From Gemmatimonadaceae bacterium (lineage in GTDB: Bacteria > Gemmatimonadota > Gemmatimonadetes > Gemmatimonadales > Gemmatimonadaceae): a stretch of DNA of 64,000 nt. The notes below the pieces were generated by a model, which saw nothing but the letters and a program-made list of their open reading frames with translations, ran no database searches and was not told the DNA's origin. The stretch covers positions 92,364 through 156,363 of the forward strand of contig JBBDYC010000009.1 in NCBI GenBank assembly GCA_040901985.1, given 5' to 3'. Shown here piece by piece: positions 30,030-60,899 of the stretch; the stretch's first letter is position 1; the number at the start of each line of letters is the position of its first letter. The translations under genes and the position numbers were made by a program.

Positions 30030-30419
30030 GCGCGCCGGTCGGTCGGGGCCGCGCCCGCCGCTTCGGGCCCTCGGCCTTACACGCTGCGAGCCCCCGCGAA
30101 CTGCTGCGGGGTCTCTTGCTACGGCCGGGGGCCCTGCGCGTCGCGCACGGCCCCTTCCTCCCTGGGGCGGGCTGCGAGTGTCGTGAGCCTGCTGGCTCCG
30201 CTTCGCGTGGGGCCGGCGCGCGGGGGCGCGAGGGAGCCGGCAGCGCCGGGCTCGCGCTGACTGGGACTCGGCCTGGGCAGGAGGGAGGGAGGGAGGGCGC
30301 GGGCGCGCGGCGCAGGGGCCTACGCCGTAGCAAGAGCCCCCGCAGCAGTTCGCGGGGGCTCGCAGCGTGTAAGGCGTTGGCCCCGAAGCCGTGCGACCGT
30401 GCCCGACCGACCGGCGCGC
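30030..30419. repeat. Structured repeat element A (inverted pair of ~130-nt nested hairpins)
   Basis: Core reversed at 30075-30122 and forward at 30327-30374. Confidence 0.9.
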
Positions 30420-30561
30420 GCAAAAGCCCGACCGACCGGCGCGCACGAGACCGACCGGCGTGCGCAAAAGCCCGACCGCCCGCGCGCACGAACCCTGACT
30501 TCGCACCGCCCGCCGCCTCCTCATATTGCGACCGACGCACCACGAGACCGCCGAGGCGAAA

Positions 30562-31815
30562 ATGATCCGCAGGGACGTGCTGACGCTGGTGCTGGCCGCC
30601 GCAGCGCTGGGGGCCGCGCCGAGGACCGCCGAGGGGATTCCGCCGTTCGCGAGGAAGTACGGCGTGAGTTGCAACCTCTGTCATCAACCGGTGCCGCGAC
30701 TGACGCCCTTTGGCGAGGCATTCGCGGCGAACGGGTTCGAGTTCGCCGTTGGCGAGCCGCCGCGGGACACCATCTTCACCGGCGACCCCCTGCTCCGCCT
30801 CCAGCGCACCTTCCCGCTCGGCGCGCGCGTGGATGCCTATCAGCGACTGCTCTCGAAGCGCGCCGCCGGTGAGGCCGCGCTCGACCAGCAGATCCCGTGG
30901 ACGGTGAAGGTCCTCAGCGGCGGGCAGGTGGCCGACAAGATCAGCTACTACCTGTACTTTCTGGTTTCCGAGCGCGGGACCGTCGCCGGGCTCGAGGATG
31001 CGTACATCCAGTTCACCGACATCGGCGGCAGCGGCGTGAGCGTGCTGGCGGGCCAATTCCAGGTCTCGGACCCGCTCTTCAAGCGCGAGGTGCGACTGCC
31101 GTACGAGGACTTTCACGCGTACCGCGTGCGGGTGGGCCTCACGCGCGCCGACCTGACGTACGACCGCGGGCTGATGGCCGTCTGGTCGCCGCGCACCGGC
31201 ACCAATCTCGCACTACAGGTGGTGAACGGCCGCGGACTCGACCCCGCCAACGAAGCGCGCCAGTACGACACCGATTCGCACCAGAACTTCGCCCTCCGCG
31301 CCTCGCAGGAGGTGGGGCCCCTGCGCCTCGGCGTCTTCGGCTACGCGGGAAACGAGACCGCGGCGGGTTTCAGCAGCCGCATCCGCATCTTCGGTCCCGA
31401 TCTCACACTGCCGCTGGGGTCGTTCGGCGAACTGAACGTTCAGGCGCTGCGGCGATGGGACAGCGACCCCTTCCTCGGCAGTTGCACGCCCGGCACACCC
31501 TGCCCGGGCGGCGCGACGGCGCCGTTTTCGACCGCGGTGGACGCCGGATTCGCCGAGGTGGTGCTCTGGCCGGCGGGCCCTGCCGGCCGATGGTTCGTGA
31601 CCGGGCTGATGAACGTGGTCTCGTCCGACGTGCCGGTGGTCTCCCTCCGACTGGGTGAGGAGAACAGCGCGGTCGGATATCTTAGGGAGTACCGGATGGG
31701 CAGTCTTGGCCTTCACTACGTGCTCCGCCGGAACGTGCGACTGATGGGCGAGGCCGGCTGGGACTTCGAGCTCGACCGGGCCCGGCTGGTGACGGGGTTC
31801 ACGCTCGGCTTCTGA
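30562..31815 (+). CDS. Cyc2-like fused monoheme cytochrome c-porin
   Basis: Signal peptide, then IPPFARKYGVSCNLCH..PRLTPFG..F..NGF; amphipathic beta-strands; C-terminal TLGF. Confidence 0.75.
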   Translation: MIRRDVLTLVLAAAALGAAPRTAEGIPPFARKYGVSCNLCHQPVPRLTPFGEAFAANGFEFAVGEPPRDTIFTGDPLLRLQRTFPLGARVDAYQRLLSKRAAGEAALDQQIPWTVKVLSGGQVADKISYYLYFLVSERGTVAGLEDAYIQFTDIGGSGVSVLAGQFQVSDPLFKREVRLPYEDFHAYRVRVGLTRADLTYDRGLMAVWSPRTGTNLALQVVNGRGLDPANEARQYDTDSHQNFALRASQEVGPLRLGVFGYAGNETAAGFSSRIRIFGPDLTLPLGSFGELNVQALRRWDSDPFLGSCTPGTPCPGGATAPFSTAVDAGFAEVVLWPAGPAGRWFVTGLMNVVSSDVPVVSLRLGEENSAVGYLREYRMGSLGLHYVLRRNVRLMGEAGWDFELDRARLVTGFTLGF

Positions 31816-31838
31816 CCAACGACGAGGAGACTCTGCTG

Positions 31839-32369
31839 ATGCTGTTCTCCACCCCAAGCGTGCTCACGATGATTCACGGCATCGTCCTCAGCGGCGGCGC
31901 ACTGCTGGCGCTCGCCGCCGCACTCTTTGCCGTGCGGGCGATGGCGCTCCCCGACGGCGCGCCCGTGAGCCAAGCCCAGGGCACGAGCTTCGCCCGGGTG
32001 ACGAGCCTGGCCGCCATCCTGCTCTGGTTCGCGGTACTCGGCGGGACGTACCTCGTCTTCCCGCTCTACCGGGCCGCACCTCCGGAGGGTCTCACGGCGC
32101 TGGCGGCGTTCCCGCGCGCCCTGCTGATGTCGGACCCGGAGACGCGCTGGCTCCACGCCTTTGCGATGGAGATCAAGGAGCATATGCCGTGGATCGCCGC
32201 GATGCTCGCGACGGCCGTCGCCGTCGTCGCCCACCGCCGCCGCGCCACGCTCCTCGCCGACGGCCCAATGCGGCGTGTCGCCTCGGCGCTCCTCGCAACA
32301 ACGTTCGTGATCGTCTCGTTCGTCGCCATCCTCGGCGTCTTCGTCAACAAGGTCGCGCCCCTCGAATAG
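31839..32369 (+). CDS. Four-TM membrane protein with a His-containing motif
   Basis: Hydrophobic segments; IHG and WLHAFAMEIKEH. Confidence 0.7.
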   Translation: MLFSTPSVLTMIHGIVLSGGALLALAAALFAVRAMALPDGAPVSQAQGTSFARVTSLAAILLWFAVLGGTYLVFPLYRAAPPEGLTALAAFPRALLMSDPETRWLHAFAMEIKEHMPWIAAMLATAVAVVAHRRRATLLADGPMRRVASALLATTFVIVSFVAILGVFVNKVAPLE

Positions 32370-32383
32370 GGGCAGGAGTCGCA

Positions 32384-32710
32384 ATGCACGAACCAACACC
32401 AGCCACTCCGCGCGCGAACGGTGTCGAACTGGCGGCCGTCCTCGCCGCCGGCATCGGCGCCGCCGCGCTGGGCATCTTCGTCCTCCTCCACGAGGCCGGC
32501 AGCTACTCGGCCCCCGCCCTCTACGCCCCCTCCGGCGGCCTTTCCGGCCGCACCACCGGGGCGGTCGCTGTGTGGCTCGTCGCGTGGGTCGTGCTGGCCA
32601 CGCGCTGGCGCGGCCGCGAGCTCGGACCGACGCGGATCCTCGCCTGGACGCTCGGCCTGACGGCCTTCGCCCTCCTCGCGACCTTCCCGCCGCTCTGGGC
32701 GCTGCTCTAG
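32384..32710 (+). CDS. Small three-TM membrane protein
   Basis: AGGAG RBS plus ATG 32384; AAVLAAGIG..., GGLSGR, TFPP. Confidence 0.7.
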   Translation: MHEPTPATPRANGVELAAVLAAGIGAAALGIFVLLHEAGSYSAPALYAPSGGLSGRTTGAVAVWLVAWVVLATRWRGRELGPTRILAWTLGLTAFALLATFPPLWALL

Positions 32711-32745
32711 CGACGGCGCGCGCAGTCTCGCGCGCACGGTCTCGC

Positions 32746-33158
32746 GCGCGGTCGGTCGGAGCCGCGCCCGCCGCTTCGGGCCCTCGGCCTTACACGCTGC
32801 GAACCCCCGCGAACTGCCGCGGGGTCTCTTGCTACGGCCGGGGGCCCTGCGCGTCGCGCACGGCCCCTTCCTCCCTCGGGCGAGATCGTGGCGAGGCCGG
32901 CTTGCCAGCTCAGCTTCGTGCGTCTGCCGCGGCGGCGGCGCGAGGGCGGCGGCAGAGGGCCGCGGCGGCGCGCGGGCGGCGGTAGCGCCGAGCCCGCGCC
33001 GACTGGGACTGGGACTGGGCAGGGGCGAGGGAGGGAGGGCGCGGGCGCGCGGCGCAGGGGCCTACGCCGTAGCAAGAGACCCCGCGGCAGTTCGCGGGGG
33101 CTCGCAGCGTGTAAGGCGTTGGCCCCGAAGCCGCGCGACCGTGCCCGACCGACCGCCC
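32746..33158. repeat. Structured repeat element B (inverted pair)
   Basis: Core reversed at 32788-32835 and forward from GTAG 33069; arms nearly identical to the matching arms of element A. Confidence 0.9.
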
Positions 33159-33196
33159 GCGCACGATCGCGCGCACACGCGCGCGCGCACACAGAA

Positions 33197-35830
33197 CTAA
33201 GCCGCCGTGCGGTCCCCGGCGATCCGGTCGAGATCCTCGAGCCCCACGAGCACGTCGCGCGGCTTGGATCCATCGGGCGGCCCCAGCACCCCAGCCAGGT
33301 GCAGTTGGTCAATGATCCGCGCCGCGCGCCCATACCCCACCTTCAGCCGCCGCTGCAGCAGCGACGTGGACCCACCCTGGTGCTGCACGCACACCTCCGC
33401 CGCCTCCCGGAAGAGCTTGTCGCGGTCGCCCTGGTCCTCGGCCGACTCCTCGCCGGCGCCCGCCTCGAGCGCCTCGCGCGCGCGGACCGTCTCGAGGATG
33501 TCCGCCTCGCTGGAGGCCTCCTCGACCGCCATCAGCCCGTCGGCCTCCAGCGCTGCCTTGCGCGCCGCCTTCCGGTCCGTGTACCAGCCCATCAGCCGCT
33601 CGGTGTCCTCGATGGCGAGGAACGCGCCCTGGAGCCGCGCCGGCTCGCTCTTCCCCGGTGGGATGAACAGCATATCGCCGTTCCCGAGCAGCGACTCGGC
33701 GCCCATTCCGTCAATGATCGTGCGCGAATCAATCTGCGACGCCACGCGGAAGGCGATCCGGCTCGGGAAGTTCGCCTTGATGAGGCCGGTGATGACGTTC
33801 ACGCTCGGCCGCTGCGTGGCGAGGATCAGGTGGATCCCGATTGCCCGCGCCTTCTGCGCCAGCATCGCCAGCGGCGTCTCCACCTCGGCGGCCACGGTCA
33901 TCATCAGGTCGGCGAGCTCGTCAATCACGACCACGATGTACGGCAGCACGCCCGCCTTGTACTCGCGGTCCTCGAACCCGACGTTCGGGTCCTTCGGCTT
34001 CCGCAGGGCGAGCCCCTCGCGGACCTTCGCGTTGAAGTCCTGGATGTTGCGCGCGCCATTCTCGGCGAGGAGCTCGTAGCGCCCCTGCATCTCCATCACC
34101 GCCCACTTGAGCACCGACGCCGCGTCGCGGTTGTCGGTGACGACCTTGTGGCGCAGGTGCGGCAGCACGTTGTACACGCTGAGCTCGACCATCTTCGGGT
34201 CCACCATCAGGAAGCGCAGCGTCTTGGGTGTGTGCCGGTAGATCAGCGAGGTGATGAGCGTGTTGACGCAGACCGACTTGCCGGAGCCGGTGGCGCCGGC
34301 GATCAGCAGGTGCGGCATCTTGGCGAGGTCGGCGATCACCGGCCGCCCCTCGAGGTCCTTGCCGAGTCCGATCGGGAGGGCCATCGGCCTGGACTGGTAG
34401 TCGCGGCTCTCGAGCATATCGCGGAAGGCGACGACGTCGGGGGTCGGGTTGGGCACCTCGATGCCGACGGCCCCCTTGCCGGGGATCGGCGCGACGACGC
34501 GGATGCTGGGCGCGCGCATCGCGAGCGCGAGGTCGTTGGCGAGGTTGGCGAACTGGCGCACCTTCACGCCGGGTCCGGGCTCGATCTCGAACTGCGTGAC
34601 CGTCGGCCCGGTGGTGCGGCCGGTGAGGGTGCCGTCCACCTTGAAGGTCTTGAGCGACTCAATGAGCTTGGCGCCCATCGCGTCGAGCTGGTTGCGGTCG
34701 GCGGCGGTGTCACGCACGGTGGCCGGGCTCAGGAGCTCGGGGGTGGGGAGCTCGTCCTCCGGGACGTGGGATGGGCGACGGGAGATGGGAGTCCCACTCA
34801 CCGCTTCCTTCCCTCCCCTCGCCTTCGACGTCCGGGTGCGCAGGTGCGTCGGGGCGAACGGCGACTCGACGGCCTCCAACTCGAGCTGCTCGGTCCTCAA
34901 CAGCGAGAGGGAGGTCAGCGGCTGGTGCTGCGACGCGTGGGCGCTCGCGTCCGCCGCTCCGCCCGCGCCGAGGCCCATCAGCGAGAGGTCCACTGGCGGC
35001 ATCTCGGCGGCGTCGGGTTCGAGGGCTTCGGCGGCGGTGAGGTGGCCGGCCGTCGTGGCGCCGGCGCCGTTGGCGTCAGCGCCCGTGGCGTCAGCGCCCG
35101 TGGCGTCAGCGCCCGTGGCGTCAGCGCCGGTGGCGCGGGCGCGGCCGACGGAGAGCAGCACGCGGACTGGATTCCAGCCCAGCGTCACCGCGGCCAGCGC
35201 GGAGAAGGCGATGGCGATGACGATCCAGGCGCCGGCGGCGCCGAGCAACTCGCGCACGTAGAACGCGGCAAAGGCCCCCCACAGGCCGGCGAGGATGTCG
35301 GGGGTGCCGGGCGCCAGGGTGTCGAGGCGCGCCAGTCCGGCGGCGACGGGGATGATGAGCGCGAGGCCGATCGTGAAGAAGAGGAACCGCTGGTCCTCGC
35401 TCTGCTCGAGCCGGCCGAGGAGGCGCAGTGCGTGGACGGCGGGGATGAGCGGCACGATGACGGCGGCGAGGGCGCCGACGAGGCCGAGGATGGACCAACG
35501 GACGCAGCCGCCGACCGGGCCAAAGGCGCCGCCGGCGGCGCTGCAGGCCTCGTTCAGTGCGGGCGCGCGGCCGAAGATCAGCGCGCCGGCGACGAACAGG
35601 GCGCCGAGGAGGAGCGCGATCCCCGAGACTTCGCGCACGACGTAGAGCCGGCGCGATTCGCTGGCGATATCGTCGGACTTCGCCGCAGCCGTCGTGGCCG
35701 GCGCGGCTGGCGCGGCTGGCGCGGCTGGCGCGGCTGTCGCGGCGTCTCGGCGCACGCGCGAGCGCCGCGGCTGCGGCGCGAGGGGGGAATCGGCGGGTGG
35801 AAGGTCGGCCGTGCTCGGCTTGCGGGCCAT
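33197..35830 (-). CDS. ftsK: DNA translocase FtsK
   Basis: N-terminal TM region; PHLLIAGATGSGKS, VVVIDELADLM, LATQRPS; gamma domain LQRRLKVGYGRAARII. Confidence 0.97.
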   Translation of the reverse strand: MARKPSTADLPPADSPLAPQPRRSRVRRDAATAAPAAPAAPAAPATTAAAKSDDIASESRRLYVVREVSGIALLLGALFVAGALIFGRAPALNEACSAAGGAFGPVGGCVRWSILGLVGALAAVIVPLIPAVHALRLLGRLEQSEDQRFLFFTIGLALIIPVAAGLARLDTLAPGTPDILAGLWGAFAAFYVRELLGAAGAWIVIAIAFSALAAVTLGWNPVRVLLSVGRARATGADATGADATGADATGADANGAGATTAGHLTAAEALEPDAAEMPPVDLSLMGLGAGGAADASAHASQHQPLTSLSLLRTEQLELEAVESPFAPTHLRTRTSKARGGKEAVSGTPISRRPSHVPEDELPTPELLSPATVRDTAADRNQLDAMGAKLIESLKTFKVDGTLTGRTTGPTVTQFEIEPGPGVKVRQFANLANDLALAMRAPSIRVVAPIPGKGAVGIEVPNPTPDVVAFRDMLESRDYQSRPMALPIGLGKDLEGRPVIADLAKMPHLLIAGATGSGKSVCVNTLITSLIYRHTPKTLRFLMVDPKMVELSVYNVLPHLRHKVVTDNRDAASVLKWAVMEMQGRYELLAENGARNIQDFNAKVREGLALRKPKDPNVGFEDREYKAGVLPYIVVVIDELADLMMTVAAEVETPLAMLAQKARAIGIHLILATQRPSVNVITGLIKANFPSRIAFRVASQIDSRTIIDGMGAESLLGNGDMLFIPPGKSEPARLQGAFLAIEDTERLMGWYTDRKAARKAALEADGLMAVEEASSEADILETVRAREALEAGAGEESAEDQGDRDKLFREAAEVCVQHQGGSTSLLQRRLKVGYGRAARIIDQLHLAGVLGPPDGSKPRDVLVGLEDLDRIAGDRTAA

Positions 35831-36027
35831 ACGTCTCGGGGATTCAGGGGACGTATGGGAGACGATTCGGGTGGCTATCGGGATACGGGTTGACTACGGG
35901 TTCAAGATCCAAGGTGAAAGGGGCGCGCCGGGGACTGCCTGGCGCGCCCGTGTGAGGGAAAAGGAAAGGGGCGCCCCCACCGGGGCCCCCCCCCCCCCCC
36001 ACCCCTTTTCAACTTTCACCTGTAGTC

Positions 36028-37047
36028 CTAGCGTCTCCCCAGCAACAGCCCGCCGCCAATGGTGAACGCCGAGACCTCTTGCTCCACCGCGAACACCTTG
36101 AAGCGTTCGATGCGGTAGCCGAGGTTCAGCGTGAGGGGAAAGCGGTTCCAGGTCCAGCTGAGCCCTGTCTCGCCGGACCAGCCCTCGAGTTCGTCTTTCG
36201 GCAGGGCGTCGTCGCCGAGCGGGATGCCGATGTAGTAGAGGGCGCGGAGCTGCACGGAGAAGTCGGTGTTGCCGACGTTCGCGCGCGTGCGAAAGCCGGC
36301 GCGGGCAAAGGTGTACGTCGAGTCGAAGTCGCCGCCGCCGCCGAACGTGAGGGAGTCGAAGCCGGTGCGCTGGGCAGCGCCAAGGTCGAGGGCGAAGCGG
36401 CGCGATCCCATCAGGAAGGCCACTTCCTGGTACGTGGGGGCATCATCGCCCCCCGCGATGCGGCGGGCGGCGAGGCCGAGGCCGCCACCGCGCGCGCGCT
36501 GCAGCGCGAGCTCAAGACTGCCGAGCCCGGTCTTGTTCTCCGGCTGGAGGGTTCCGCCGTCGGAGGTGCGGACGCTCGCGTTGTGGAGGTCGAACATCAT
36601 CATCAGGTAGACGGGCGAGCGTCGGCGCGTGGTTCCTGCCTCGGCGATGCGCACCGAGTCGCGCCGCACGGCGGCGGTGGCGGCGGCAATCGCGGCGGCG
36701 GTGGCCTGCGCAGGAGTGGTCGCGGCCGGCGGCGTGGCTGCCGGAGCGGCGGGACGTGCCGCAGCGGGCTGTCCGGCCGGCGGCGTGGCGGGCTGTCCGG
36801 CCGGTGGGGTGGCGGGCTGCCCCGCGGGCGGAGTGGCTGCGGGCGGGGTAGCCGGCTGTGCGGCGGGCTGACCCGCGGGCGGTGTGGTCGGCCGCGCGGC
36901 GGGCTGACCCGCGGGTGGCGTGGTCGGCCGCGCGGCGCCCGGCGCCGGCGTGGTCGTCGGCGCCGGCTTGGGGTCGGCCGGCTTGATCGCAAAGACGCTG
37001 CACCCGGCGAGCGGGAGGAGTGCAGCGAGGAGGAACGCGCGCGTCAT
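36028..37047 (-). CDS. Putative lipoprotein with a Pro/Ala/Thr repeat linker and a beta-barrel-like C-terminus
   Basis: Lipobox LAGC; repeated TPPAGQPAA; alternating beta-strand pattern; alternative start 37071. Confidence 0.65.
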   Translation of the reverse strand: MTRAFLLAALLPLAGCSVFAIKPADPKPAPTTTPAPGAARPTTPPAGQPAARPTTPPAGQPAAQPATPPAATPPAGQPATPPAGQPATPPAGQPAAARPAAPAATPPAATTPAQATAAAIAAATAAVRRDSVRIAEAGTTRRRSPVYLMMMFDLHNASVRTSDGGTLQPENKTGLGSLELALQRARGGGLGLAARRIAGGDDAPTYQEVAFLMGSRRFALDLGAAQRTGFDSLTFGGGGDFDSTYTFARAGFRTRANVGNTDFSVQLRALYYIGIPLGDDALPKDELEGWSGETGLSWTWNRFPLTLNLGYRIERFKVFAVEQEVSAFTIGGGLLLGRR

Positions 37048-37072
37048 TGAGGCCTCGTGAGTGGTCGTCATC

Positions 37073-38164
37073 TCAGCGCGCCTGCGGCTGGATGCGCACG
37101 GTGACCTTGTACGCCGCTATCCGCTGCTTACTCTCGGCGTCGGCGTCGGTGAGCGCCTTCAGGTGCGCCGCCCGCAACGCCATATTGGCCCGCAGGTTCT
37201 CGACAGAGACGGTACCCTTGTCGAGCCAGAATCCGCCGACGGCGGCGCCGATCATCGCCACGCTGACGAGAATCGCGCGGCCGTCCGACTTGTACTCCGA
37301 GCGGATCGGCTCCTCGGCGCGGGCGACCGCGGCAATCGCGCCCGTCGCGGCGGCAAAGAATACGCTGGTCATCACCATCCGCACCCGCGGCGCCTTGGCC
37401 GACTCGGGCAGGAGCTTCGTGGTGTCGAGCACCGGCGTCGAGACCGGCGCAAGCGGCGTCGCCGCGGTGGCCGTCGCGTGATGCCGTACGGTCACCGAGT
37501 CGCCGGTGACGGCGTCCACCGCCGTCACCACAAACTCGTATTCCCCCGAGACGAACAGCGGCGTGCGGCCATCGTGGCCGCGGAAGCCGAGCTGGCCGCG
37601 CGAGTCAGGGGTCACGGTGGAGTCGTGGAGGACGCTCGCGCCAGTCGGAAGCGGGGCGACGCGCAACCGGAAGCGCACCGGCCGCGACGCGATCACGCTG
37701 ATGAACGCCCGGCCGTCGGTCCCGACGAGCGAATCCTGCGCCGCCGGGCGGACGGCCACGGCGAGCGTGCGGCTGCGCGCCACCTCGTAGAGGGAATCGA
37801 GGCCCGACCACCGCAGCTCCACGGGGAGCGTGGCATCGGGCGCGAGCCGGATGATCGCACTCAGGTGCGCGAGCGCGGAGTCGGACCGCTGCTCGGCCAG
37901 TTCCTCGGGGTAGAAGGCGGCCGCCATCGTGGCCCGGAGCGCGATCACCTGCGCCGGTCGCATGTTGGGCGCGAACGCAAAGACCTCGTGGCCGCGCCGG
38001 ATCGCGTCGGCGTAGCGGAGGTCGTTCACGTCCGCGCGCACGCGGGCGATGAGGTCGTCGGTCGGCGATGTGCCCTGCGCGGCCGCACCGTCGGAGGCGG
38101 CGGCGAGCGCGAGGACAACGCCGAGGAGGGCGGCGCCGAGGCGTCGCGATTTCCGGAGGGACAT
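37073..38164 (-). CDS. Hypothetical exported protein
   Basis: Signal peptide; C-terminal hydrophobic hairpin; tightly packed with its neighbours. Confidence 0.6.
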   Translation of the reverse strand: MSLRKSRRLGAALLGVVLALAAASDGAAAQGTSPTDDLIARVRADVNDLRYADAIRRGHEVFAFAPNMRPAQVIALRATMAAAFYPEELAEQRSDSALAHLSAIIRLAPDATLPVELRWSGLDSLYEVARSRTLAVAVRPAAQDSLVGTDGRAFISVIASRPVRFRLRVAPLPTGASVLHDSTVTPDSRGQLGFRGHDGRTPLFVSGEYEFVVTAVDAVTGDSVTVRHHATATAATPLAPVSTPVLDTTKLLPESAKAPRVRMVMTSVFFAAATGAIAAVARAEEPIRSEYKSDGRAILVSVAMIGAAVGGFWLDKGTVSVENLRANMALRAAHLKALTDADAESKQRIAAYKVTVRIQPQAR

Positions 38165-38221
38165 GGAAACTCTCAGGCCGGGGGAATCAGCAAGCGGAGA
38201 AATGAACGCCTGGGACGCCGT

Positions 38222-39976: not shown

Positions 39977-40334
39977 AGGACTTCCGTGTGGGGGCGGGTC
40001 TCGTAAGAATGTCCGGCTTTTTGGCCGGGCGGTCAAGTGCGTTGTGTCACCTTCTGACTGCTTATTCCCGGCTTTTTTCCGCAGGTCGGGAGGCGCCGGA
40101 CGCCCTCCCGGGCTCTCGCGCGGATGCTGACAGTCGCGCTGCCGCTCGCTCCGTGACCGCTCCCGGGCCGCCGCCGAACCCTCTTTCGGGGCTGGGTAAG
40201 CTAAAACCGCACATTGCCGGCGAGGCGCACAACGGAGAGCGAGGGGACAGGCTGGCCGGGCCGAGACGGAGCGGACGCCGCGGCCCGCGAACCCGTGCAG
40301 CCCGCGCCGGACCGTGCGCGCGGACAGGGCCCTT

Positions 40335-40464
40335 GGGAGGGCAGCGACGTGCGCCCGGCGAAGGGGCCTACGCCGTAGCAAGAGACCGCGCGGCGGTTCG
40401 CGCGGGCTCGCAGCGTGTAAGGCGTTGGCCCCCGGAGCCAGGCGCTCGCCGCTGCCCGACCGAC
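40335..40464 (+). repeat. Structured repeat element C (single arm)
   Basis: GTAGCAAGAGACCGCGCG..CGCGCGGGCTCGCAGCGTGTAAGG from 40375. Confidence 0.88.
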
Positions 40465-40518
40465 GCAAAGATCCCAAGGCACCCGGCGATCGAGCAGCGA
40501 ACAGCGGGCAGCGAGCGT

Positions 40519-41871
<1,353 letters not shown>

Positions 41872-47947: not shown

Positions 47948-47949
47948 GG

Positions 47950-48666: not shown

Positions 48667-48714
48667 GTCAGGAAGATAGACGAACCGGGAACCCCCGGTT
48701 CCCGGGCGCGTCGC

Positions 48715-49167
48715 TCAGGCCGCGGCGCTTGGGGCGCCGCCGAGGGCGCGGACGAGGCCGCGCAGGGCGAGTTCGTACCCATCGGCGCCGAAGCCGGCGA
48801 CGATCGCGATCGCGCCGGGGGCGAGCCACGAGTGCCGGCGCTCCGGCTCCCGGGCGTAGATGTTCGAGAGGTGCACCTCGACGTAGGGCAGCGACACGGC
48901 GGCAAAGGCGTCGCGCAGCGCGAGACTCGTGTGCGTCCAGGCGCCGGCGTTCACCAGCGCGCCGGTGACCACGCCGCGGCAGTTGTGGATCGCGTCGAGC
49001 ATCTTCCCTTCGTCGTTGAACTGCGAGAACAGCAGCGTCACCCCGAGCTCGGCGCCCACTTCCTCCAGCCGCGCCTCGATCTCCTCGAGCGTCACCGTGC
49101 CGTAGATCTCGGGTTCGCGGACGCCAAGGAGGTTGAGGTTCGGTCCGTTCAGGACGGCGATCCTCAC
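48715..49167 (-). CDS. aroQ: Type II 3-dehydroquinate dehydratase
   Basis: NGPNLNLLG.REPEIYG, EVHLSNIYARE. Confidence 0.96.
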   Translation of the reverse strand: MRIAVLNGPNLNLLGVREPEIYGTVTLEEIEARLEEVGAELGVTLLFSQFNDEGKMLDAIHNCRGVVTGALVNAGAWTHTSLALRDAFAAVSLPYVEVHLSNIYAREPERRHSWLAPGAIAIVAGFGADGYELALRGLVRALGGAPSAAA

Positions 49168-51422: not shown

Positions 51423-51603
51423 CCGGCTCGGCTCTGGGAAGTGAGAAGGGACCAGCGCCCCGACTTGGGAGAAAATACCACGCCGGGAGAGTGCAGGTCA
51501 ATCAGAAGTGTGCGTGTCGCTTGATTTTAGGTCGTGTCGCCGGGTAGGTTTCGAGGTTCTTTCCCACGTCATTCTCCTACCGTTCGCGCCAGGGTTGTCC
51601 GCC

Positions 51604-53433: not shown

Positions 53434-53516
53434 CTAAAGGTGAGAGGTGGAAGGTCACCGCACCTGCGCGCCAGGCAGTCCCCGGCGCGCCCCTTTCCCC
53501 TTTCTCCTTTCGCCTT

Positions 53517-53765
53517 TTAAATCAGCCTCTTCGGCTCCGTCCCCTCGGCATCCTTCTGCGGTGCCCCCTGGCGCTCCTGGGCGGGCGGCAGACTCCCCTG
53601 CTCCGCCGGCGTCGAGATCTCGCGCTGCACCTCGTTCATATTCTTCTTGAACTCCTTGATTCCCTTGCCGAACGAGCCGGCGATCTCGGGAATGCGCTTC
53701 GCGCCGAAGAGCAGGAGAACGACTACAAGACCGATGAAGAGTTCGGTCGGGCCGAGTCCGAACAT
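53517..53765 (-). CDS. tatA: Twin-arginine translocase TatA/E
   Basis: LLLFGAKRIPEIAGSFGKGIKEFKK. Confidence 0.95.
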   Translation of the reverse strand: MFGLGPTELFIGLVVVLLLFGAKRIPEIAGSFGKGIKEFKKNMNEVQREISTPAEQGSLPPAQERQGAPQKDAEGTEPKRLI

Positions 53766-53776
53766 ACGAACCTCCG

Positions 53777-54058
53777 TTAGAACAGCGAACGCGCGATGAG
53801 ATAGGCGGCGAGGACCCCGACAAGGCTCAGCAGCGAGACGTCGAGCGCGATGGGTCCCAATCCAAACTTGATGATGACCAGATCCACCGACAAGGGGCCG
53901 ACCGACGGCGTCACCCCGGTGGTGAGGAATTCCTTGACCGCGCCCGACGGCAGGAAGAGCCGGGCAAACTGCGTGAGGAAGCCGCCGACCACGAACCCGA
54001 TGGCCAGCACGATGGCGTGATACCCCGGGCGATGCTTCGCCGAGCCCTGGAGCGCCAT
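53777..54058 (-). CDS. Small membrane protein (DUF4321-like)
   Basis: Two hydrophobic segments with a central DLVIIKF; packed between the polyprenyl synthase and tatA. Confidence 0.6.
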   Translation of the reverse strand: MALQGSAKHRPGYHAIVLAIGFVVGGFLTQFARLFLPSGAVKEFLTTGVTPSVGPLSVDLVIIKFGLGPIALDVSLLSLVGVLAAYLIARSLF

Positions 54059-55062
54059 CAGGCCCGTCGGTCCATCACGTAGGCCAGCGCGTCCACCAGC
54101 GACTGCCGCACCTCCGACTCCGGCACGCCGTCCAAGGCCTCCTCCGCGAGCTGGGCGAATTTCTCCCCGGTCCGGCGTGCGTAGTCGAGCCCGCCGCACT
54201 CCGCCACGATGCCGACGACCTCGGCGATCGTCGCGTCACCCGGCGTCGGATCGGCGAAGAGGGCATCCACCCGCGCCCGCTGGGCGCGCGACATCTGCCC
54301 GAGCGCCGCGATCAGCGGGAGCGTGACCTTGTGCTCGCGCAGGTCGGTGCCGCCCGGCTTCCCGGTCACCGCCTCCTGCTCGATGTAGTCGAGCAGGTCG
54401 TCGGCGACCTGGAACGCCATCCCGAGCTGCTCCCCGAAGCGTCGGAGCTGGGCGCGGTAGCGCGGCGCGCCGGCCAACGCGCCCATCTCGCACGCCGCGC
54501 CGACCAGCGAGGCCGTCTTGGCCCGGATCAGCGTGTAGTAGTCCGCCTCGGTGAAGGTCAGCGCATCGTACGACGCCAGTTGGCGGAGCTCGCCGAGCGT
54601 CATCTCGTTCGACGCCTGCGTGAAGACCCGCAGCGGCTCGAGGTCACCGAGCCGCACCAGCTCGGCGATGGCCTTGGAGAACAGGAAGTCGCCCATCAGC
54701 ACGGCCACCTGATGACTGAAGATTGCGTTGAGCGTCGGCTGGCCGCGGCGGAGGACCGAGTGGTCCACCGAGTCGTCGTGGACAACGCTCGTCAGGTGCA
54801 CGAGCTCGGCGACCGCCGCCAGCGGGATGGCACGCTCCTCCGGCGTCCCCTCGACCTCCGACGCGAGGAGGAGGAGTGTCGGCCGGAAGAGCTTGCCGCG
54901 CATCCCGCGCAGGTGCGCGTTGGCCGCCTCGACAATCGCGACGTCGGCCTCGACGATCCGCCAGAGCTCCTCCGGCACGCGGTCGAGCCGGGCCCGCACC
55001 GGGAGCTGGATCTCGAGCAGCGCCGGGGCGACCGGCAGGCGCGTCTGCGCGTCGGGCGTCAC
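54058..55062 (-). CDS. Polyprenyl diphosphate synthase (IspB/HepT-like)
   Basis: GKLFRP, HDDSVD...RRG, KTA, FQVADDLLD. Confidence 0.93.
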   Translation of the reverse strand: MTPDAQTRLPVAPALLEIQLPVRARLDRVPEELWRIVEADVAIVEAANAHLRGMRGKLFRPTLLLLASEVEGTPEERAIPLAAVAELVHLTSVVHDDSVDHSVLRRGQPTLNAIFSHQVAVLMGDFLFSKAIAELVRLGDLEPLRVFTQASNEMTLGELRQLASYDALTFTEADYYTLIRAKTASLVGAACEMGALAGAPRYRAQLRRFGEQLGMAFQVADDLLDYIEQEAVTGKPGGTDLREHKVTLPLIAALGQMSRAQRARVDALFADPTPGDATIAEVVGIVAECGGLDYARRTGEKFAQLAEEALDGVPESEVRQSLVDALAYVMDRRA

Positions 55063-57380
55063 GTGAGATTCCGCTCGACCGCGCTGAGCCGGTCGCCGAC
55101 GTCGCGGAACTGGATGTCCACCGAGAAGACGCGCTCGTAGAACTTCTTGGCCTCCGGATACGCCTTGGTCTCCTCGGAGATGGCGCCGAGCAGGTAGAGC
55201 ACGCCGACGAGCTCCTCGTCGCGGACGTTCGGCTCGGAGAGCGCGCGCTGGAGAATCGTCGCCGCCACCGGAAGCTGCTGCTTCTCGATGAAGCAGTGGC
55301 CCAGCGCCTCGAACGAGCGCACGCGCGCATTGGGCGCGCGGAGCGCCTTCTGGAACTCGGCGATCGCCTCGTCGAGCAATCCCATCTCCTTGTAGGCGAC
55401 GCCGAGGTCGTAGTGGGCCTCGTGATCCTCGTCGTCCACGTTGTCGGAAACGCCCTGCTTGAACATCCGGAGCATATCGGCGAAGTCCGCCTGCTCGTCG
55501 CCGGTGGGCTCCTTCTCCTCGACGACCATCCGCGTGCTCTTCGGCTCGTCGTCCTCGCGCAGCCAGTCGCCGAGCGACACAAATTCGTCGTCGCTGTCAC
55601 CCTTGGGCTTGGCGGCCTTCTTCGGCATCGGGGCGGGCTTGGCGGGCGCCGCGGTGGTGCTGCGCCGCGGCGGCGGCGGGGCCTCGACGGCAACCTCCTC
55701 CGGGATGGACTCGATGGCCGCCTGGGCGCGCAGGTCGTCCGGCGTGATGTCGAGGACCCGCTGGTAGACCACGCGCGCCTTCTGCGCCTGGCCGTCGGCG
55801 AGCAGCGCGTCAGCGAGTTCGAGGTACGCCTCGGCGAGGAGCCCGCGGTCGTTGGCGCGGAAGGCGAACTCGACCCGCTTCTGGTGGAAGCGGATGGACT
55901 TGGGCTCAAGCCGGACGATCTCCTCGGCGATGGATCCGGCGGTGTCGAGGTCGCCGCCGGTCTCATAGCCGGTCATCGCCTGCTCGAGTTGCGCCACGCC
56001 TTCAGCCCGGTCGCCGCCCTCCAGCAGCGCCTCGGCGAACTGCCGCCGCAGGCCCCAGTCCTCCGGCGAGGCGTCCACGCGCTCCCGCAGGGCGTCCACC
56101 GAGGTCGCCAGTTCCGTGGAGGCCTCGGGCATCTCGAGCACCGGCGCCTCGACCACCGGCTCCTCGAACGGGCTGTCGCCCAGCGGCGAGTCGGTGTCGA
56201 AAACGATCAGATCGTCGGACAGCGATGGCTCCGGCTCGACTTGGAGGGCGTCGCCGCCGAGCGTCGGCTCCGGCTCGATCAGCGATTCCACGGTCCCGAT
56301 CTCCGCCGGCGCGTCGAGGTCCATCACCTCGAGGTCGGGCGCCGATCGCGGCACGGTCGGCGGCTCCTCGCTCTCCACCGGCTCCACCGGAGCGTCGGCG
56401 TCGGCGTCGGCGGGCGGTGCGACCTCGTCGGAGAAGCTGGTGGCCTGGAGTCCTGCCAACGATCCGCGCGGCGGTGGCGGTGCCTCGTCGGCGACCTGCG
56501 TGGGTTCGATGAGGATTGGCTCGGCGGGCGGCGCAGGGGGTGTGGCGGGAGCGGCGGGCTCGGCGGGGGCGGCGGCCGCCGGCTTGGCCGGAGCAGGCGG
56601 AGCGAGCGGCTCAAGCAGCGAGAGTCCCTCGACCGCCTTGGTGAGACGCTTGGTCTCCAGCGGCGACGGCATCCGCACGGACTTGCGGCCGGCCGGCGTG
56701 TCCACGTCGAGGAAGACCAGCCCCGCGCCCCCGGACGAGGACGCCGCACCGTCGGCCTTCGGCTCGATGGACGGGTCAATCTCCTTGAGCTTTGCGGCGA
56801 AGCTGTCGGCATCGCTTGCATCGCCGTCGGCCGACGCCTGCGCGTAGCCCACCTGGAGCTGGGCGATTGACTCGTCCTTCTTCCCCGCCTTGAGGAGTTG
56901 ATCGGCCAGCATCAACCGGACGTCGTACTGGTCCGGCACGAGGTCGGCGAACTCCTTCAGGGTCCGGAAGGCCTCGTCCATATTGCCGGCCTGCTGCTGG
57001 CGACTCGCGTACTCGAGGAAGTTCTGGCGCGCGTCGGCCTTGAAGCCCTTCTCGGCGCTGATCTTCCCGAGCTTGTAGTAGATCACGGTGCGGCCGGGCG
57101 AGGCGCGCAGGATCTTGTTGCAGAGCGCGATGGCCGGGTTGTAGAACCCGCCCTCGGTGTAGTGATCCACCGCCTTCTCCCAGACCGACACGGCGTCCGG
57201 GAGTTTCCCCGCCTTCTGCAGCATATCGCCGACGCGATTGTAGAACGGGATGTCTACCGGATCCTCTTCGCCCCCCTCGTACGCGTCAATGATCTGGCGA
57301 TAGACGTCGAGGGCCTTGTCCACCTGCTTCTTGGCCTCGAGGTCGGCCGCTTTCTTCTTCAGCTTGACGATGTCGGCCAT
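55059..57380 (-). CDS. Large TPR protein with a C-terminal HYDLGVAYKEMGL TPR cluster
   Basis: N- and C-terminal TPR arrays separated by an acidic linker. Confidence 0.8.
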   Translation of the reverse strand: MADIVKLKKKAADLEAKKQVDKALDVYRQIIDAYEGGEEDPVDIPFYNRVGDMLQKAGKLPDAVSVWEKAVDHYTEGGFYNPAIALCNKILRASPGRTVIYYKLGKISAEKGFKADARQNFLEYASRQQQAGNMDEAFRTLKEFADLVPDQYDVRLMLADQLLKAGKKDESIAQLQVGYAQASADGDASDADSFAAKLKEIDPSIEPKADGAASSSGGAGLVFLDVDTPAGRKSVRMPSPLETKRLTKAVEGLSLLEPLAPPAPAKPAAAAPAEPAAPATPPAPPAEPILIEPTQVADEAPPPPRGSLAGLQATSFSDEVAPPADADADAPVEPVESEEPPTVPRSAPDLEVMDLDAPAEIGTVESLIEPEPTLGGDALQVEPEPSLSDDLIVFDTDSPLGDSPFEEPVVEAPVLEMPEASTELATSVDALRERVDASPEDWGLRRQFAEALLEGGDRAEGVAQLEQAMTGYETGGDLDTAGSIAEEIVRLEPKSIRFHQKRVEFAFRANDRGLLAEAYLELADALLADGQAQKARVVYQRVLDITPDDLRAQAAIESIPEEVAVEAPPPPRRSTTAAPAKPAPMPKKAAKPKGDSDDEFVSLGDWLREDDEPKSTRMVVEEKEPTGDEQADFADMLRMFKQGVSDNVDDEDHEAHYDLGVAYKEMGLLDEAIAEFQKALRAPNARVRSFEALGHCFIEKQQLPVAATILQRALSEPNVRDEELVGVLYLLGAISEETKAYPEAKKFYERVFSVDIQFRDVGDRLSAVERNLT

Positions 57381-57487
57381 TCGGGGAGGCGGTCGGCGAG
57401 AAACAGGGCGGGCATCAGTAGAGCGCCGGAGGCGCAACGACCCGAAAGGTACGCCCCGAACCACTGGCGTGACAAGCGTTTGGGTCG

Positions 57488-58744
57488 CTACTCCGTGTGT
57501 GCCGGCCGGCCGCCGACCCAACTGCCCACGCAGCGTCGGTCGCCGTACCAGTACGGGATCTCCCGATGGTCACCCACCGCGAAGAGCGCCAGGTCGCCCT
57601 GAAATCCTGGCGAGAGCTGGCCAAGCTCGGCGGCCATCCCGAGCGCCGCCGCACCATTCACCGTCGCCGCCACGAACGCCTCGGCGACGCTCAGCCGGAG
57701 CTGGCTCACGCCGAGCGTGAGGACCAGCGGGAAGTTCACGGTCGGGCTTGTCCCCGGATTGAAGTCGGAGGCGAGGGCCACGGCGCAGCCGGCCTCGACC
57801 AGCGCCCGCGCCGGGGCCTGGGTGGACCGCCCGAGGAACAGCATCGTCCCGGGGAGGAGCGTGGCCACGGTCCCCGCCTTCGCGAGGGCGGCGATCCCGG
57901 CGGCGGAGACCGCCGCGAGATGGTCGGCGGAGGTCGCGCCAAGTTCGGCGGCGAGCTCGGCCGCCGCGCCGTTCGCGAGTTCGTCGGCGTGCAGCTTGAG
58001 GGAGAGCCCGTGCGAGCGCGCCGCGGTCAGCACCTGCCGCGACTCCTCGACGCTGTAGACGCCGGGCTCGCAGAAGACGTCGCAGAAGCGCGCCAGTCCC
58101 TCGCGCGCCACGGCCGGCAGCATCTCGTGGACGACGAGCGCCAGGTAGTCGGCCCGCGTGCGCGGCGCCTCGCGGTACTCGAGCGGGACCTCGTGCGCGC
58201 CGAGGAACGTCGGGACGAGCCGCACCGGCAGCTCGGCGGCGAGGCGGCGCACCACGCGCAGGGTGCGGAGCTCGGCGTCGAGCGAGAGGCCGTAGCCCGA
58301 CTTCACCTCGATCGTCGTGGTGCCGTGCGCGGCAAGCCGGCGGAGCCGCGCGCCGGCGAGCGCCGCGAGGTCGTCCTCCGGGCGCGTCCGCAGGTCGCGC
58401 ACCGAGGCGTGGATCCCGCCGCCACGCCGGGCGATCTCCAGATACCCGACGCCGGCGGCGCGGAGCTCCTGCTCCTCGTGGCGCGGCCGCCCGAAGATCG
58501 CGTGCGTGTGCGAGTCCACGAAGCCCGGTGTCAGCACGCCGCGCGCGCAATCCACGAGCGTCGCCGCGGGATGCGCCGCGCGGAGCTCGGCATCCGGCGC
58601 GACGGCGAGCACGCGGCCATCGGCCCCGACCGCCACGCCGACCCCGTCGCGCACGCCGGCGTCGGCCATCTCGGCGCCGCGACGCGCGCGCCCCGGGCCC
58701 GCGCACGTCACCACCTGCGCGGCGTTCACGAAGAGCGTCGTCAC
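57488..58744 (-). CDS. hutI: Imidazolonepropionase
   Basis: [36 protein letters not shown]. Confidence 0.96.
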
Positions 58745-60417
58745 GCGCCGTCCGGGCGCGGGCCGCCCATCGGGATGCGGATGCCGGTCCGCCGCGCGGT
58801 CTCCTGCGCCGACGGGTATCCCGCATCGGCGTGCCGCGCCACGCCGATCCCCGGATCGTTCGTCAGCACGCGCTCGAGCCGCTCGCGCATCTCCGGCGTC
58901 CCGTCGGCGACGATCACCTGTCCCGCGTGGAGCGAGTTGCCGATCCCCACCCCGCCGCCGTGGTGAAAGCTCACCCAGCTCGCGCCGCTCGCCACGTTGA
59001 GCAGCGCGTTGAGGATCGCCCAGTCAGCCACCGCGTCGGTGCCGTCCTTCATCCCCTCCGTCTCGCGGAAGGGTGAGGCCACGCTGCCGGTGTCGAGGTG
59101 GTCGCGCCCGATGACGATCGGTGCCGAGATCTCCCCCGAGGCGACGAGGTCGTTGAGCGCCACGCCGAAGCGGGCGCGTTCGCCCTGGCCGAGCCAGCAG
59201 ATGCGCGCCGGCAAGCCCTGGAACCGGATTCGCTCGCGTGCCATCGTGATCCACCGCTTGAGGTGCGCGTCGTCCGGAAACATCTCCAGCACCAGGTCGT
59301 CGGTGCGTGCGATGTCGGCCGGGTCGCCCGAGAGCGCGGCCCAGCGGAACGGGCCCTTGCCCTCGCAGAACAGTGGCCGCACGTACTCGGGGACGAACCC
59401 GGGAATCCGGAAGGCGTCGGTGACGCCGGCGTCGAGGGCGACGGTGCGGATGTTGTTGCCGTAGTCGAAGGCGACCGCGCCGGCGTCCTGCATCGCGCGC
59501 ATCGCGCGGACGTGAGCGACGACGCTCGCCGTCGAGCGGCGCAGGTACTCCGCGGAATCGCTGCCGCGCAGCGCCGTCGCGGCGGCGAGCGACATCGCGT
59601 GCGGGACGTAGCCGTGCAGCATATCGTGCGCCGAGGTCTGGTCGGTCACGACGTCGGGGATCAGGCCGCGCTCGACCATCGTCGGGAGGACCTCCGCCGC
59701 ATTGCCGACGAGCCCGACCGAGAGTCCGCGCCTCGCTGCCTGCGCCTCGCGGATCCAGCGCATCGCCTCGTCGAGGTCGGCCGTCATCCGGTCGCAGTAG
59801 CCGCCCTGCAGGCGCTTCTCGATGCGCGACGGATCCACCTCGACGCAAAGGATCGCGGCGTCGTTCATCGTCGCCGCCAACGGCTGCGCGCCGCCCATCC
59901 CGCCGAGTCCGGCGGTGAGGACGAAGCGGCCGGCGAGGGTGCCGCCGAAGTGCCGGCGCGCGACCGCGCCGAACGTCTCGAACGTCCCCTGCACGATTCC
60001 CTGCGACCCGATGTAGATCCACGACCCGGCGGTCATCTGCCCGTACATCATCAGGCCCCGCCGCTCGAGCTCGCGGAAATGCTCCCAGGTGGCGAAGCGG
60101 CCCACAAGGTTGGAGTTGGCGATCAGGACGCGGGGCGAATGGCGGTGGGTGCGGAAGACGGCGACCGGCTTGCCGCTCTGGACGAGGAGCGTCTCGTCGT
60201 CGGCGAGGTCGCGCAGCGTCGCGACGATCGCGTCGAACGACTCCCAGTTGCGCGCCGCCTTGCCGGTCCCGCCATAGACGACGAGGTCCTCGGGCCGCTC
60301 CGCGACCTCGGGGTCGAGATTGTTCATCAGCATCCGCAGGGCGGCCTCCTGCGGCCAGCCCTTGCAGCTGATCGCCGTGCCGCGCGGGGCGCGCACGACT
60401 CGCGTCTGGTTCGTCAT
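58741..60417 (-). CDS. hutU: Urocanate hydratase
   Basis: [37 protein letters not shown]. Confidence 0.98.
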
Positions 60418-60509
60418 CGCTGGCCGCGGCTCCTCTCAGGCATCGCGCTAATCTAGCGCGTCGGCGGGCCCTGTTCTGCTCGCCTGCTGTCTGGCTGGGA
60501 TTCGTGCGC

Positions 60510-60899
60510 GGTCGGGGGGCGGGGGCATTCCCTTCGCGAGCCTCACGCGCTTAGACGCTGCGAGCCGCCGCAACGGCGCGGCGTCTCTTGCTACGCGCGA
60601 CGGCTCGCTGTGGGAACGCCCCCGCCCCCCTCCCCAGCCGGCCTCGCACGTGAGGGGCGGCGGCGAGGCGCGGCCCGGCCGCGCGCGAGCGCACGCGACG
60701 CCCACGCCGAGGGCGAGCCAGAGTGAGCGATCCGGATCGCGCCCGCGCGAGCCGACCTGCACTGAAGACCTTGGGAGGGCGGGAGCGGCCGCGCGGCGCA
60801 GGGGCCTACGCCGTAGCAAGAGACCCCGCGGCAGTTCGCGGGGGCTCGCAGCGTGTAAGGCGTTGGCCCCGAAGCCGTGTGGCCGCTCCCGACCGACCG
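60510..60899. repeat. Structured repeat element D (inverted pair; left arm strongly diverged)
   Basis: Core reversed at 60551-60594 and forward from GTAG 60813; lies between hutH and hutU. Confidence 0.88.

Follow-up and report, generated by a model that had tools for sequence, protein, structure and literature searches.

The analysed window, a 64-kb stretch of DNA from a Gemmatimonadaceae genome (G000), contains seven copies of a repeat, with ftsK, accC, hutH and hutU among the adjoining genes (Table 1). The conserved unit is 127–130 nt long in the window and includes an inner core of 40–46 nt. All seven cores reported in the first-pass annotation were found where it had placed them (on the minus strand at 30081-30122, 32794-32835 and 60555-60594), each followed by (G/C)TAA, and gene calls together with Pfam confirmed that all seven copies are intergenic. 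The annotation had overlooked the pairing of six of these copies into three dimers of GTAG-inward orientation. An eighth copy was found split, with one part at an end of contig C13 and the other at an end of C8, and seven of the eight copies of the genome are located inside 31 kb. The core of copy B-left has one C>T change in its 3' half, by which a G.T pair is kept, and the 3' tail of B-right reaches the stop codon of ftsK (33197).

Table 1. Copies of the repeat and associated features in the window.
Feature	Position	Strand	Remarks
Copy A-left, full rod	30036..30165	-	Core 30077-30122; parts: GA:GA tail stems, outer stem P1, GCA:GAA loop, middle stem, core, inner hairpin
Dimer A spacer	30166..30284	.	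Contains hairpin; partly homologous to dimer B spacer
Copy A-right, full rod	30285..30412	+	Core 30327-30372
Four imperfect tandem repeats of the 3' tail (CCGACC...GCGC...) after A-right	30403..30495	+	Read directly in the sequence
Copy B-left	32749..32878	-	Core 32790-32835; near-identical to A-left
Dimer B spacer	32879..33026	.	
Copy B-right	33027..33154	+	Core 33069-33114; near-identical to A-right
Single copy C	40336..40464	+	Core 40375-40420; 3' of accC
Copy D-left	60510..60636	-	Core 60551-60594; middle and outer stems different
Dimer D spacer	60637..60772	.	
Copy D-right	60773..60899	+	Core 60813-60858; between hutH (stop 60953) and hutU (start 60417)

Each copy is built of a near-fixed, GTAG-headed core within nested stems. 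The inner stems of copies B, C and D-left were as previously described, and the same was true of the middle stem of about 12 bp, formed by 5 bp, a small loop and a further 5–9 bp, and of the 3 × 3 internal loop GNA:GNA. GTAG was present in practically 100% of 290 copies, a figure partly due to ascertainment, and an A.G mismatch in 198 of 202. The 5-bp stem adjoining the core was Watson-Crick paired in 94.4–99.7% of 306 copies, depending on the position, and included 25 different perfect 5-mers. Of the 16 pairs, 10 showed double changes, amounting to 155 cells where shuffles gave 53.7, and slid controls were at most 62% paired in comparison to 93% in the true register. The compensatory change of the stems, first proposed from the window copies, was thereby supported by covariation across 290–306 copies. 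Also the core loop alternates, between AA:GCA (147/202) and GA:GAA (35/202), both sides changing in concert.

When 284 copies were aligned with a strand-neutral aligner, the mismatches were distributed very unequally between the strands: 230 GA:GA loops were found against no TC:TC, 139 GNA:GNA against no TNC:TNC, and 165 G.T against 31 A.C. The earlier statement that most non-canonical pairs are G:T holds for the outer stem, where this is the commonest single mismatch (165/273), but not overall, the G.A-type loops being the commonest in the same 284 copies. This asymmetry bears on the idea that the repeats are decaying relics, the compensatory changes of which reflect neutral template-switch correction of palindromes while the fold itself is unselected. 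Such correction would remove mismatches on both strands, whereas the GA:GA and GNA:GNA loops are strictly one-stranded; the concerted switches of the core loop and the occurrence of the same core in 13 genera also argue against it. Copy C and the C13/C8 copy have strongly diverged outer stems despite a common core and middle stem, chimeric and fused copies exist, and no enzyme was found, all of which fit a relic, but as a whole we regard this explanation as very improbable.

RNA tetraloops were nearly absent from the tips of the inner hairpins. Of 260 distinct inner arms, 54 had DNA mini-hairpin caps (GCGNAGC/GCGNNAGC), in contrast to three on the other strand, while CUUCGG was found once and GNRA-type tips three times among the same arms. 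Mini-hairpins of this kind are described as far more stable in DNA than in RNA; they cap ssiA and the origins of phage G4, and SSB has little affinity for them (PMC13037366). The commonest tip, GCVGTT(Y), is typical of neither DNA nor RNA, which counts against reading the repeat as a single-stranded DNA element.

The approximately 130-nt intergenic repeats occur in Gemmatimonadaceae and are essentially confined to Gemmatimonadota. Copies occur in 30 of 401 genomes of the family and in 13 of 77 genera, with 1 to 34 or more copies per carrier, and 326 distinct copies were gathered altogether; among the 55 congeners, 22 carry 1–34 copies each. The near-fixed core is retained across all 13 genera, although its invariance is partly built in because the copies were retrieved by core patterns. 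The strict core is expected by chance about 1e-4 times per genome. A CM search of 150 genomes of the class, with 21 candidates scored per genome, was positive in at least two. The bracket CTAC/TA(A/G)GAC yielded no strong hairpin at 60 local matches. No match to Rfam 15 was found in the window at the gathering score, and the two matches obtained at E ≤ 10 were chance matches outside the copies. The family probably represents a variant of REP-like ssDNA elements for which a mobiliser was not found, with a role as RNA as an unlikely rival reading.

Close pairs of copies were oriented GTAG-inward in 67 of 68 cases, their gaps ranging from 21 to 647 nt, and about half of all units were single copies. 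The 12-nt arms of the partners were identical in four of the 68 dimers and unlike in 64. The computed minimum-energy fold paired the cores of the dimer with each other in 55 of 68, a point against the reading favoured below. Of 110 units, 44 were located between convergent, 59 between tandem and seven between divergent genes, compared with 68, 465 and 242 of the 775 gaps of G000, so the copies are concentrated at gene 3' ends. Dimer A is one of the rare cases between divergent genes. In 43 of 68 loci, most of the surrounding genes were on the strand opposite to GTAG, a bias that is not decisive. TAG was the stop codon of the facing gene in 63 of 132 cases (CTA on the GTAG strand) and of 84 among 325 further genes at these loci, at most a hint of the C|T site at which the cognate enzyme of GTAG REPs cleaves and transfers ssDNA; lying 47–130 nt from the core, the stop is not a fixed junction.

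Copying within genomes was indicated by the closest relative of a copy being in the same genome in 59 of 75 cases. In genome G063, a dimer has a duplicate 3.4 kb away with 92% identity and sharp ends, and between one gene pair the filled site of 380 nt in G063 corresponds to an empty site of 2 nt in G007. Neither a flanking direct repeat nor a target-site duplication was detected at the duplicated dimers of G063 or at dimers A and B of G000, a small sample, and three DNA read runs gave no readable empty allele.

Several of these features would also suit a repeat acting as RNA, either as a structured non-coding RNA or as a stabiliser or terminator of 3' ends that the host retains and that recombination or gene conversion would have spread. 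The copies follow stop codons and lie between convergent genes, the ends of ftsK, accC and hutU being occupied across several species. Folding z-scores (60 shuffles each) were −5.4 to −11.1 for RNA and −2.6 to −8.1 for DNA, and in 120 of 131 copies it was the GTAG strand that folded more stably as RNA. Tandem G.A loops are stable in RNA as well, and both these and the G.U pairs are compatible with RNA. REPs, too, are described as frequently transcribed (PMC3733652). However, the gene with the abutting stop mostly reads the non-folding strand, and single copies in tandem gaps were GTAG-sense in 15 and antisense in 27 cases. Between positions 29800 and 41000, no U-tract terminator was found at any of the five copies and no sigma-70-like promoter was detected. 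The near absence of RNA tetraloops, the lack of an Rfam match and the 33 of 55 congeners without copies likewise leave the structured-RNA alternative weakened, and we consider it unlikely.

The link to a RAYT that the first-pass annotation had implied was not recovered: no Y1/RAYT gene was found in G000 or in 54 congeners (PF01797 and NF047646 both 0/55), or beside any copy. Nor was one found in five other high-copy genomes or, above the cut-off, in five further carriers including the single-contig G437. Some Y1 gene was present in eight of 42 other carriers, and a Y1 match was obtained in 84 of the 301 genomes sampled across the class. No copy was located within about 1.5 kb of 42 Y1 loci from those carriers and the class sample, and none of 30 Y1 loci from the class-wide sample carries a copy. 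A home-made Y1 profile, which recovered 42 of 42 controls, gave no match either in G000 or across 333 element loci (1.09 Mb, redundant). A small Ssn-like GIY-YIG gene was absent from five carriers, in which matches were present only in frames of 416–703 aa, two per genome, and no GIY-YIG was found among the scanned neighbours of the copies.

Other candidate mobilisers and modes of insertion were also rejected. G000 has no reverse transcriptase, and its two fragments of an IS91-type Y2 transposase have unrelated ends of their own; IS91-type Y2 was found in none of five high-copy genomes, a weak result as the search controls gave no signal. IS110 is present in just two of those five genomes. No neighbour gene recurred except at orthologous sites, and the genes enclosed between paired dimers, considered as a possible 'REPtron', were ordinary or, in G028, of DUF2442 type. 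A guide role of the 25-nt variable loops was set aside when 27 loops gave no flank match of at least 11 nt except to the loop of the partner. A gene-cassette site (attC/pdif-like) was dismissed, the cargo between ftsK and yraN being the same with or without copies (G063 vs G007, G000 vs G030), and a MITE of a DDE transposon likewise, target-site duplication not being seen at the duplicated dimers checked.

The failure to find a transposase would be accounted for if the rod served host replication proteins as an ssDNA signal (for primase or PriA, or as an SSB-resistant site), with copies on opposite strands cross-priming and an over-replicated dimer integrating nearby without a dedicated transposase. 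The caps shared with G4 origins and ssiA (PMC13037366), the near-invariant orientation of the dimers and the local clustering in G000 are consistent with this. The large share of single units is not, an HUH enzyme accounts better for the GTAG tag and the REP-like layout, and no copy matched in the viral contigs, phages and plasmids searched, the usual home of such signals; we hold this explanation to be distinctly improbable.

In comparison to the GTAG REPs and BIMEs of E. coli with TnpA-REP/RAYT, as described in PMC3333891, PMC8266576 and PMC3733652, the repeats are alike in having GTAG on the 5' side of a hairpin that contains a conserved mismatch, in their intergenic, mainly tandem or convergent positions near stop codons, in inverted heterodimers with variable linkers (TT type), and in strand asymmetry and a copy number varying among relatives. 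Among the arrangements reported for GTAG REPs are heterodimers and TT-type dimers whose spacers vary (PMC3733652). Differences concern size and the position of the tag. The repeats are about 130 nt long against 20–50 nt for REPs, just the inner core being REP-sized, and GTAG is internal, enclosed by the 5-bp stem, about 25–40 further base pairs and G.A zipper loops, and separated by 3 nt (CAA/CGA) from a 3-bp stem. In REPs, by these accounts, GTAG is terminal and unpaired, 0–2 nt from a basal stem of 7–20 bp (PMC6006769, PMC3733652). Carriers have 1 to 34 or more copies compared with hundreds of REPs in E. coli, where a cognate tnpA-REP is present, while here none was found in the genus or adjoining any copy.

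The Pseudomonas REPIN-RAYT system, as presented in bioRxiv 2021.07.10.451892, resembles the repeats as an extragenic, copied inverted doublet with conserved arms and a variable spacer, and by our computed folds the dimers of the present family can also form one long hairpin. Unlike in REPINs, each arm is a 130-nt rod and the partners are unlike each other, and there is no vertically inherited single-copy RAYT, yet duplicates look recent. According to the same source, REPIN populations without a RAYT decay, and the near-identical copies present here, where no RAYT was found, are at odds with this. REP-like repeats without an associated transposase gene have a parallel in the CGTC-tagged REPs of PMC3733652, which as described there are simple stem-loops with another tag, size and taxa. 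The Ssn motifs processed by SsnA, a GIY-YIG enzyme (PMC11893778), are an earlier example of repeated ssDNA hairpins targeted by a nuclease that is not of HUH type.

The reading that we favour, with moderate confidence, is a non-autonomous REP/BIME-like mobile element, the GTAG strand of which is predicted to fold as ssDNA and the core of which would be the target of an HUH-type nuclease acting in trans, for which no gene was found. Of the original proposal of a large, structure-selected REP/REPIN-like ssDNA element, the covariation, strand asymmetry, DNA-type caps, BIME-like dimers, gene context and within-genome copying speak for the element, while the RAYT association fell away. When the DNA is transiently single-stranded, at the replication fork or by supercoil extrusion, the GTAG strand would form a rod stiffened by G.A pairs. 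The enzyme would read the core with its GTAG and asymmetric loop, pairing being sufficient for the outer stems, and might cut and rejoin beside the rod so that single units or dimers are copied, mostly nearby. Surviving copies would gather behind stop codons, in places that leave promoters intact. The nuclease could belong to an unrecognised family, or be a RAYT that visits or was lost. A bolder version, in which large G.A-zipper ssDNA rods are still copied without Y1/RAYT, either by proteins of host replication or by a structure-specific ssDNA nuclease-ligase of a novel class, is conceivable but rather doubtful.

The working model of REP-type spread requires a RAYT transposase. Here a REP/BIME-like family of three times the usual size shows recent-looking duplications without a findable RAYT, also in a single-contig assembly. 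If the repeats are only a relic of a lost RAYT, they would be a lineage-specific REP variant of modest interest. If they are still mobile, they would point to an unknown ssDNA-processing enzyme, for which the repeats offer a ready substrate to fish with. With several hundred natural variants, the family documents in unusual richness how selection has acted on a folded nucleic acid containing G.A tandem and zipper loops.

Re-reading the window confirmed all seven core positions of the first-pass annotation, and six of the copies form three dimers of opposite copies with their GTAG ends facing each other (GTAG-inward). Searching the window's entire genome (G000; 2.64 Mb in 19 contigs, 99.97% complete) with profiles and covariance models added only an eighth copy, split across the ends of contigs C13 and C8, and therefore a 31-kb stretch holds seven of its eight copies. 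By chance, the strict core would occur ca. 1e-4 times per genome, and all copies folded better than shuffled sequences (z -2.6 to -8.1 as DNA, -5.4 to -11.1 as RNA). The annotation had named a strong Rfam match as speaking against novelty; the Rfam search of the window gave no match to any family, and none was found for the hairpin copies. The UPF0102 gene beside dimer A is presumably yraN. The 3' tail of some copies is itself repeated in tandem (12 of 326 copies, exact-repeat test), and the stretch from copy to facing stop is A-rich and T-poor on the strand reading the GTAG core (GTAG strand).

Hairpin copies, their parts and other features in the window, in G000 and in fetched loci (L numbers)
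Feature	Location	Strand	Description
Dimer A	window		between starts of UPF0102 gene (Pfam match) and unannotated 417-aa gene
Dimer B	window		between 108-aa gene and ftsK stop
Copy C	window		3' of accC
Dimer D	window		between hutH and hutU
Layout, base			2-bp stems separated by tandem GA:GA loops; outer stem P1 ~12-23 bp; 3x3 GNA:GNA loop
Layout, middle			5-9-bp stem; small variable loop; strict 5-bp stem
Layout, tip			core loop GTAGCAA / GCAGCGTGTAA; GAG/CTC; A.G mismatch; variable-length inner hairpin
Tandem-repeated 3' tail	window 30403-30495; L002, L103, L282		
23-27-nt apical-loop subfamily	L026, L034, L048, L064, L081, L096, L098, L105, L106, L301, L312 and others		
Chimeric or fused copies	L104/L265:6324, L276:7847, L101, L264:4813-4898		
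Truncated partner	L339 near 3927		middle stem and core 3' half retained; GTAG half and inner hairpin missing
ftsK-yraN interval	window 29935-33196; orthologous L226-L260		variable cargo
IS91-type fragments	window 20542-20860; G000 C1:31842-32000	+ (window)	Y2_Tnp transposase fragments, then conserved end
Toxin-antitoxin-rich patches	window 5038-10033, 15862-16233, 26367-28084		three Uma2-family, PIN, BrnA-like, HicB-like, ribbon-helix-helix/nucleotidyltransferase

The scan of one genome per species found at least 122 stretches with the pattern. The 80 matches listed with titles comprised 77 from Gemmatimonadota, two from unclassified bacteria and one labelled Actinomycetota, the flanking genes of which match a Gemmatimonadota locus. 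In the family of G000 the pattern was present in 30 of 401 genomes and 13 of 77 genera. The covariance model matched in at least 22 of 55 congeners with at least 1-34 copies per genome, these counts being lower bounds with at most 58 candidates scored per genome. Metagenomes gave 123 further stretches, and no copies were found in the viral contigs, phages and plasmids searched. Altogether 326 distinct copies were gathered, a set that includes related genomes and is thus non-independent, and in which the conservation of the core is partly by construction because copies were collected with core patterns. In one genus (g164) several sites were common to different species, which indicates vertical inheritance of copies as well.

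The strict 5-bp stem was Watson-Crick paired in 94.4-99.7% of 306 copies per position, with 25 distinct perfect 5-mers. Compensatory change, claimed from the window copies, was also borne out in a 56-row alignment: double changes occurred in 10 of 16 pairs. Double-change cells numbered 155 where shuffles gave 53.7, and pairing stood at 93%, falling to at most 62% with partners slid. In some rows of this alignment MAFFT misplaces the inner stem, and the shuffle takes no account of kinship. Among 202 copies the core GAG/CTC was replaced by AAG/CTT (4) or GAA/TTC (14), and the core 2x3 loop alternated between AA:GCA (147) and GA:GAA (35). One subfamily has an apical loop of near-constant length, mostly 25 nt, AT-rich and variable in sequence, as a rule starting with GAC and matching nothing in the flanks. 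Some copies combine 5' and 3' arms of different subtypes, and one dimer is fused via spacer loss; these point to crossing-over at the core or close to it, or else to misassembly.

Strand was assessed in 284 copies with an aligner scoring G.T like any other mismatch. G.T mismatches numbered 165 against 31 A.C, GA:GA loops 230 against no TC:TC, and GNA:GNA loops 139 against no TNC:TNC. The strand on which structural selection acts is thus the GTAG strand; neutral palindrome correction is a highly improbable origin of the paired arms. The DNA mini-hairpins GCGNAGC/GCGNNAGC form the tip in 54 of the 260 distinct inner arms, compared with 3 for the opposite strand, RNA-type tips being rare (CUUCGG 1, GNRA-type 3); the most frequent tip, GCVGTT(Y), points to neither. 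Kimoto and Hirao describe such mini-hairpins as far stabler in DNA than in RNA and as present at phage ssDNA origins (PMC13037366). Genes with a stop abutting a copy mostly read the non-folding strand (15 sense, 27 antisense; singles in tandem gaps), and no terminator-like or promoter-like sites coincided with the five copies scanned. Against DNA stand the neutral commonest tip, the stability that tandem G.A loops also have in RNA, and the core-to-core fold predicted for most dimers (below). The folded GTAG strand acting as DNA is favoured, not proven, and a host RNA element is unlikely.

Close pairs were GTAG-inward in 67 of 68 cases, with gaps of 21-647 nt and identical 12-nt arms in only four. 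The predicted fold joined both cores into one long hairpin in 55 of the 68 dimers, under an energy model that is poor at treating G.A loops. Where genes could be called to either side (110 units), the gaps were convergent (44), tandem (59) and divergent (7), compared with 68, 465 and 242 of the 775 G000 gaps of at least 60 nt. TAG stops ended 63 of 132 genes facing a copy against 84 of 325 other genes of the same loci, an excess faintly reminiscent of TnpA-REP cleavage at C|T, though the copy-to-stop distance varied from 47 to 130 nt. In 11 congeners, 59 of 75 copies had their nearest relative in the same genome. Congener G063 carries one dimer twice (92% identity, sharp ends) with no direct repeat at its flanks, and dimers A and B of G000 are likewise duplicates without flanking direct repeats. 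The same gap measured 380 nt in G063 against 2 nt in congener G007. A host priming signal amplifying itself is an unlikely alternative.

Within the genus, copies recur at the recA-yraN-ftsK-accC region, with a copy within 2.5-11.5 kb in 8 of the 14 carriers fetched; also congener G018 and G000 carry copies there. Its ftsK-yraN interval is a genus-wide hotspot of variable cargo, including an unannotated three-gene block, padR with an ADOP permease and a DUF2442-type gene. Cargo was exchanged both with and without hairpin copies, and copies as cassette ends were therefore ruled out.

Also other repeats were seen. The IS91-type end …TTGAA(T/A)(T/C)TCC(T/C)ATCC occurs nine times in G000, several clustered on contigs C1, C14 and C19, and is a repeat family separate from the hairpin copies. 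The commonest repeated words of G000 are heptamer microsatellites (CTCACAC, CCTGACA, CTCCCAC) at the ends of contigs C5 and C6 and elsewhere.

A RAYT or Y1 transposase flanked by the motif, proposed as a check, was not found in profile searches of genomes and of loci beside copies. PF01797 and NF047646 gave zero matches in G000, 54 congeners and five other genomes with 16-31 copies, and none above cut-off in five further genomes, including the single-contig G437 (89% complete by markers). Some Y1 gene occurred in 8 of 42 other carriers, and none of 42 fetched Y1 loci held a copy. A profile made out of 23 of these proteins recovered all 42 control loci, whereas neither the 333 element loci nor G000 yielded a match. 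A reverse transcriptase (G000), Y2 and IS110 (five high-copy genomes) and a small GIY-YIG protein (five carriers) failed as mobiliser, the Y2 negative being a weak one. The 185 neighbour genes (102 against NCBIfam, 83 against Pfam) had no common function, one being an HNH protein. Most genomes searched are fragmented assemblies, from which a small repeat-flanked gene can drop out, and an enzyme may enter a lineage and later be lost from it. In another family (f8), 31 of 74 genomes had a weak single-copy Y1_Tnp match, often 6-8 kb from the contig start, which may be a Y1 gene that has been domesticated.

Folding, strand choice, arrangement and the pattern of copying are observed or computed. 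The family is somewhat more probably than otherwise a non-autonomous REP/BIME-like ssDNA element. By analogy with TnpA-REP, an HUH-type enzyme would recognise the core of the folded copy, and would cut and join the element; TnpA-REP binds REP in single-stranded form, depends on GTAG and on an irregular stem, and cleaves at CT (PMC8266576; PMC3333891). The REP/REPIN-like reading was supported in part: the elements are real and behave as GTAG REPs do in TT heterodimers (PMC3733652). However, they are longer than REPs (about 130 nt against 20-50 nt), their GTAG is buried whereas that of REPs lies 0-2 nt from a 7-20-bp stem (PMC6006769), and no REPtron (tnpA-REP/RAYT gene flanked by its repeats) was found. 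No published description of the Gemmatimonad family was found in the open-access literature searched; Gemmatimonadota are absent from the main texts of PMC3733652 and PMC6006769, whose supplements may contain additional families. In Pseudomonas and Neisseria, repeat decay follows RAYT loss (bioRxiv 2021.07.10.451892), and the young duplicates of the hairpin family are therefore notable. The chief interest of the family is its missing mobiliser.
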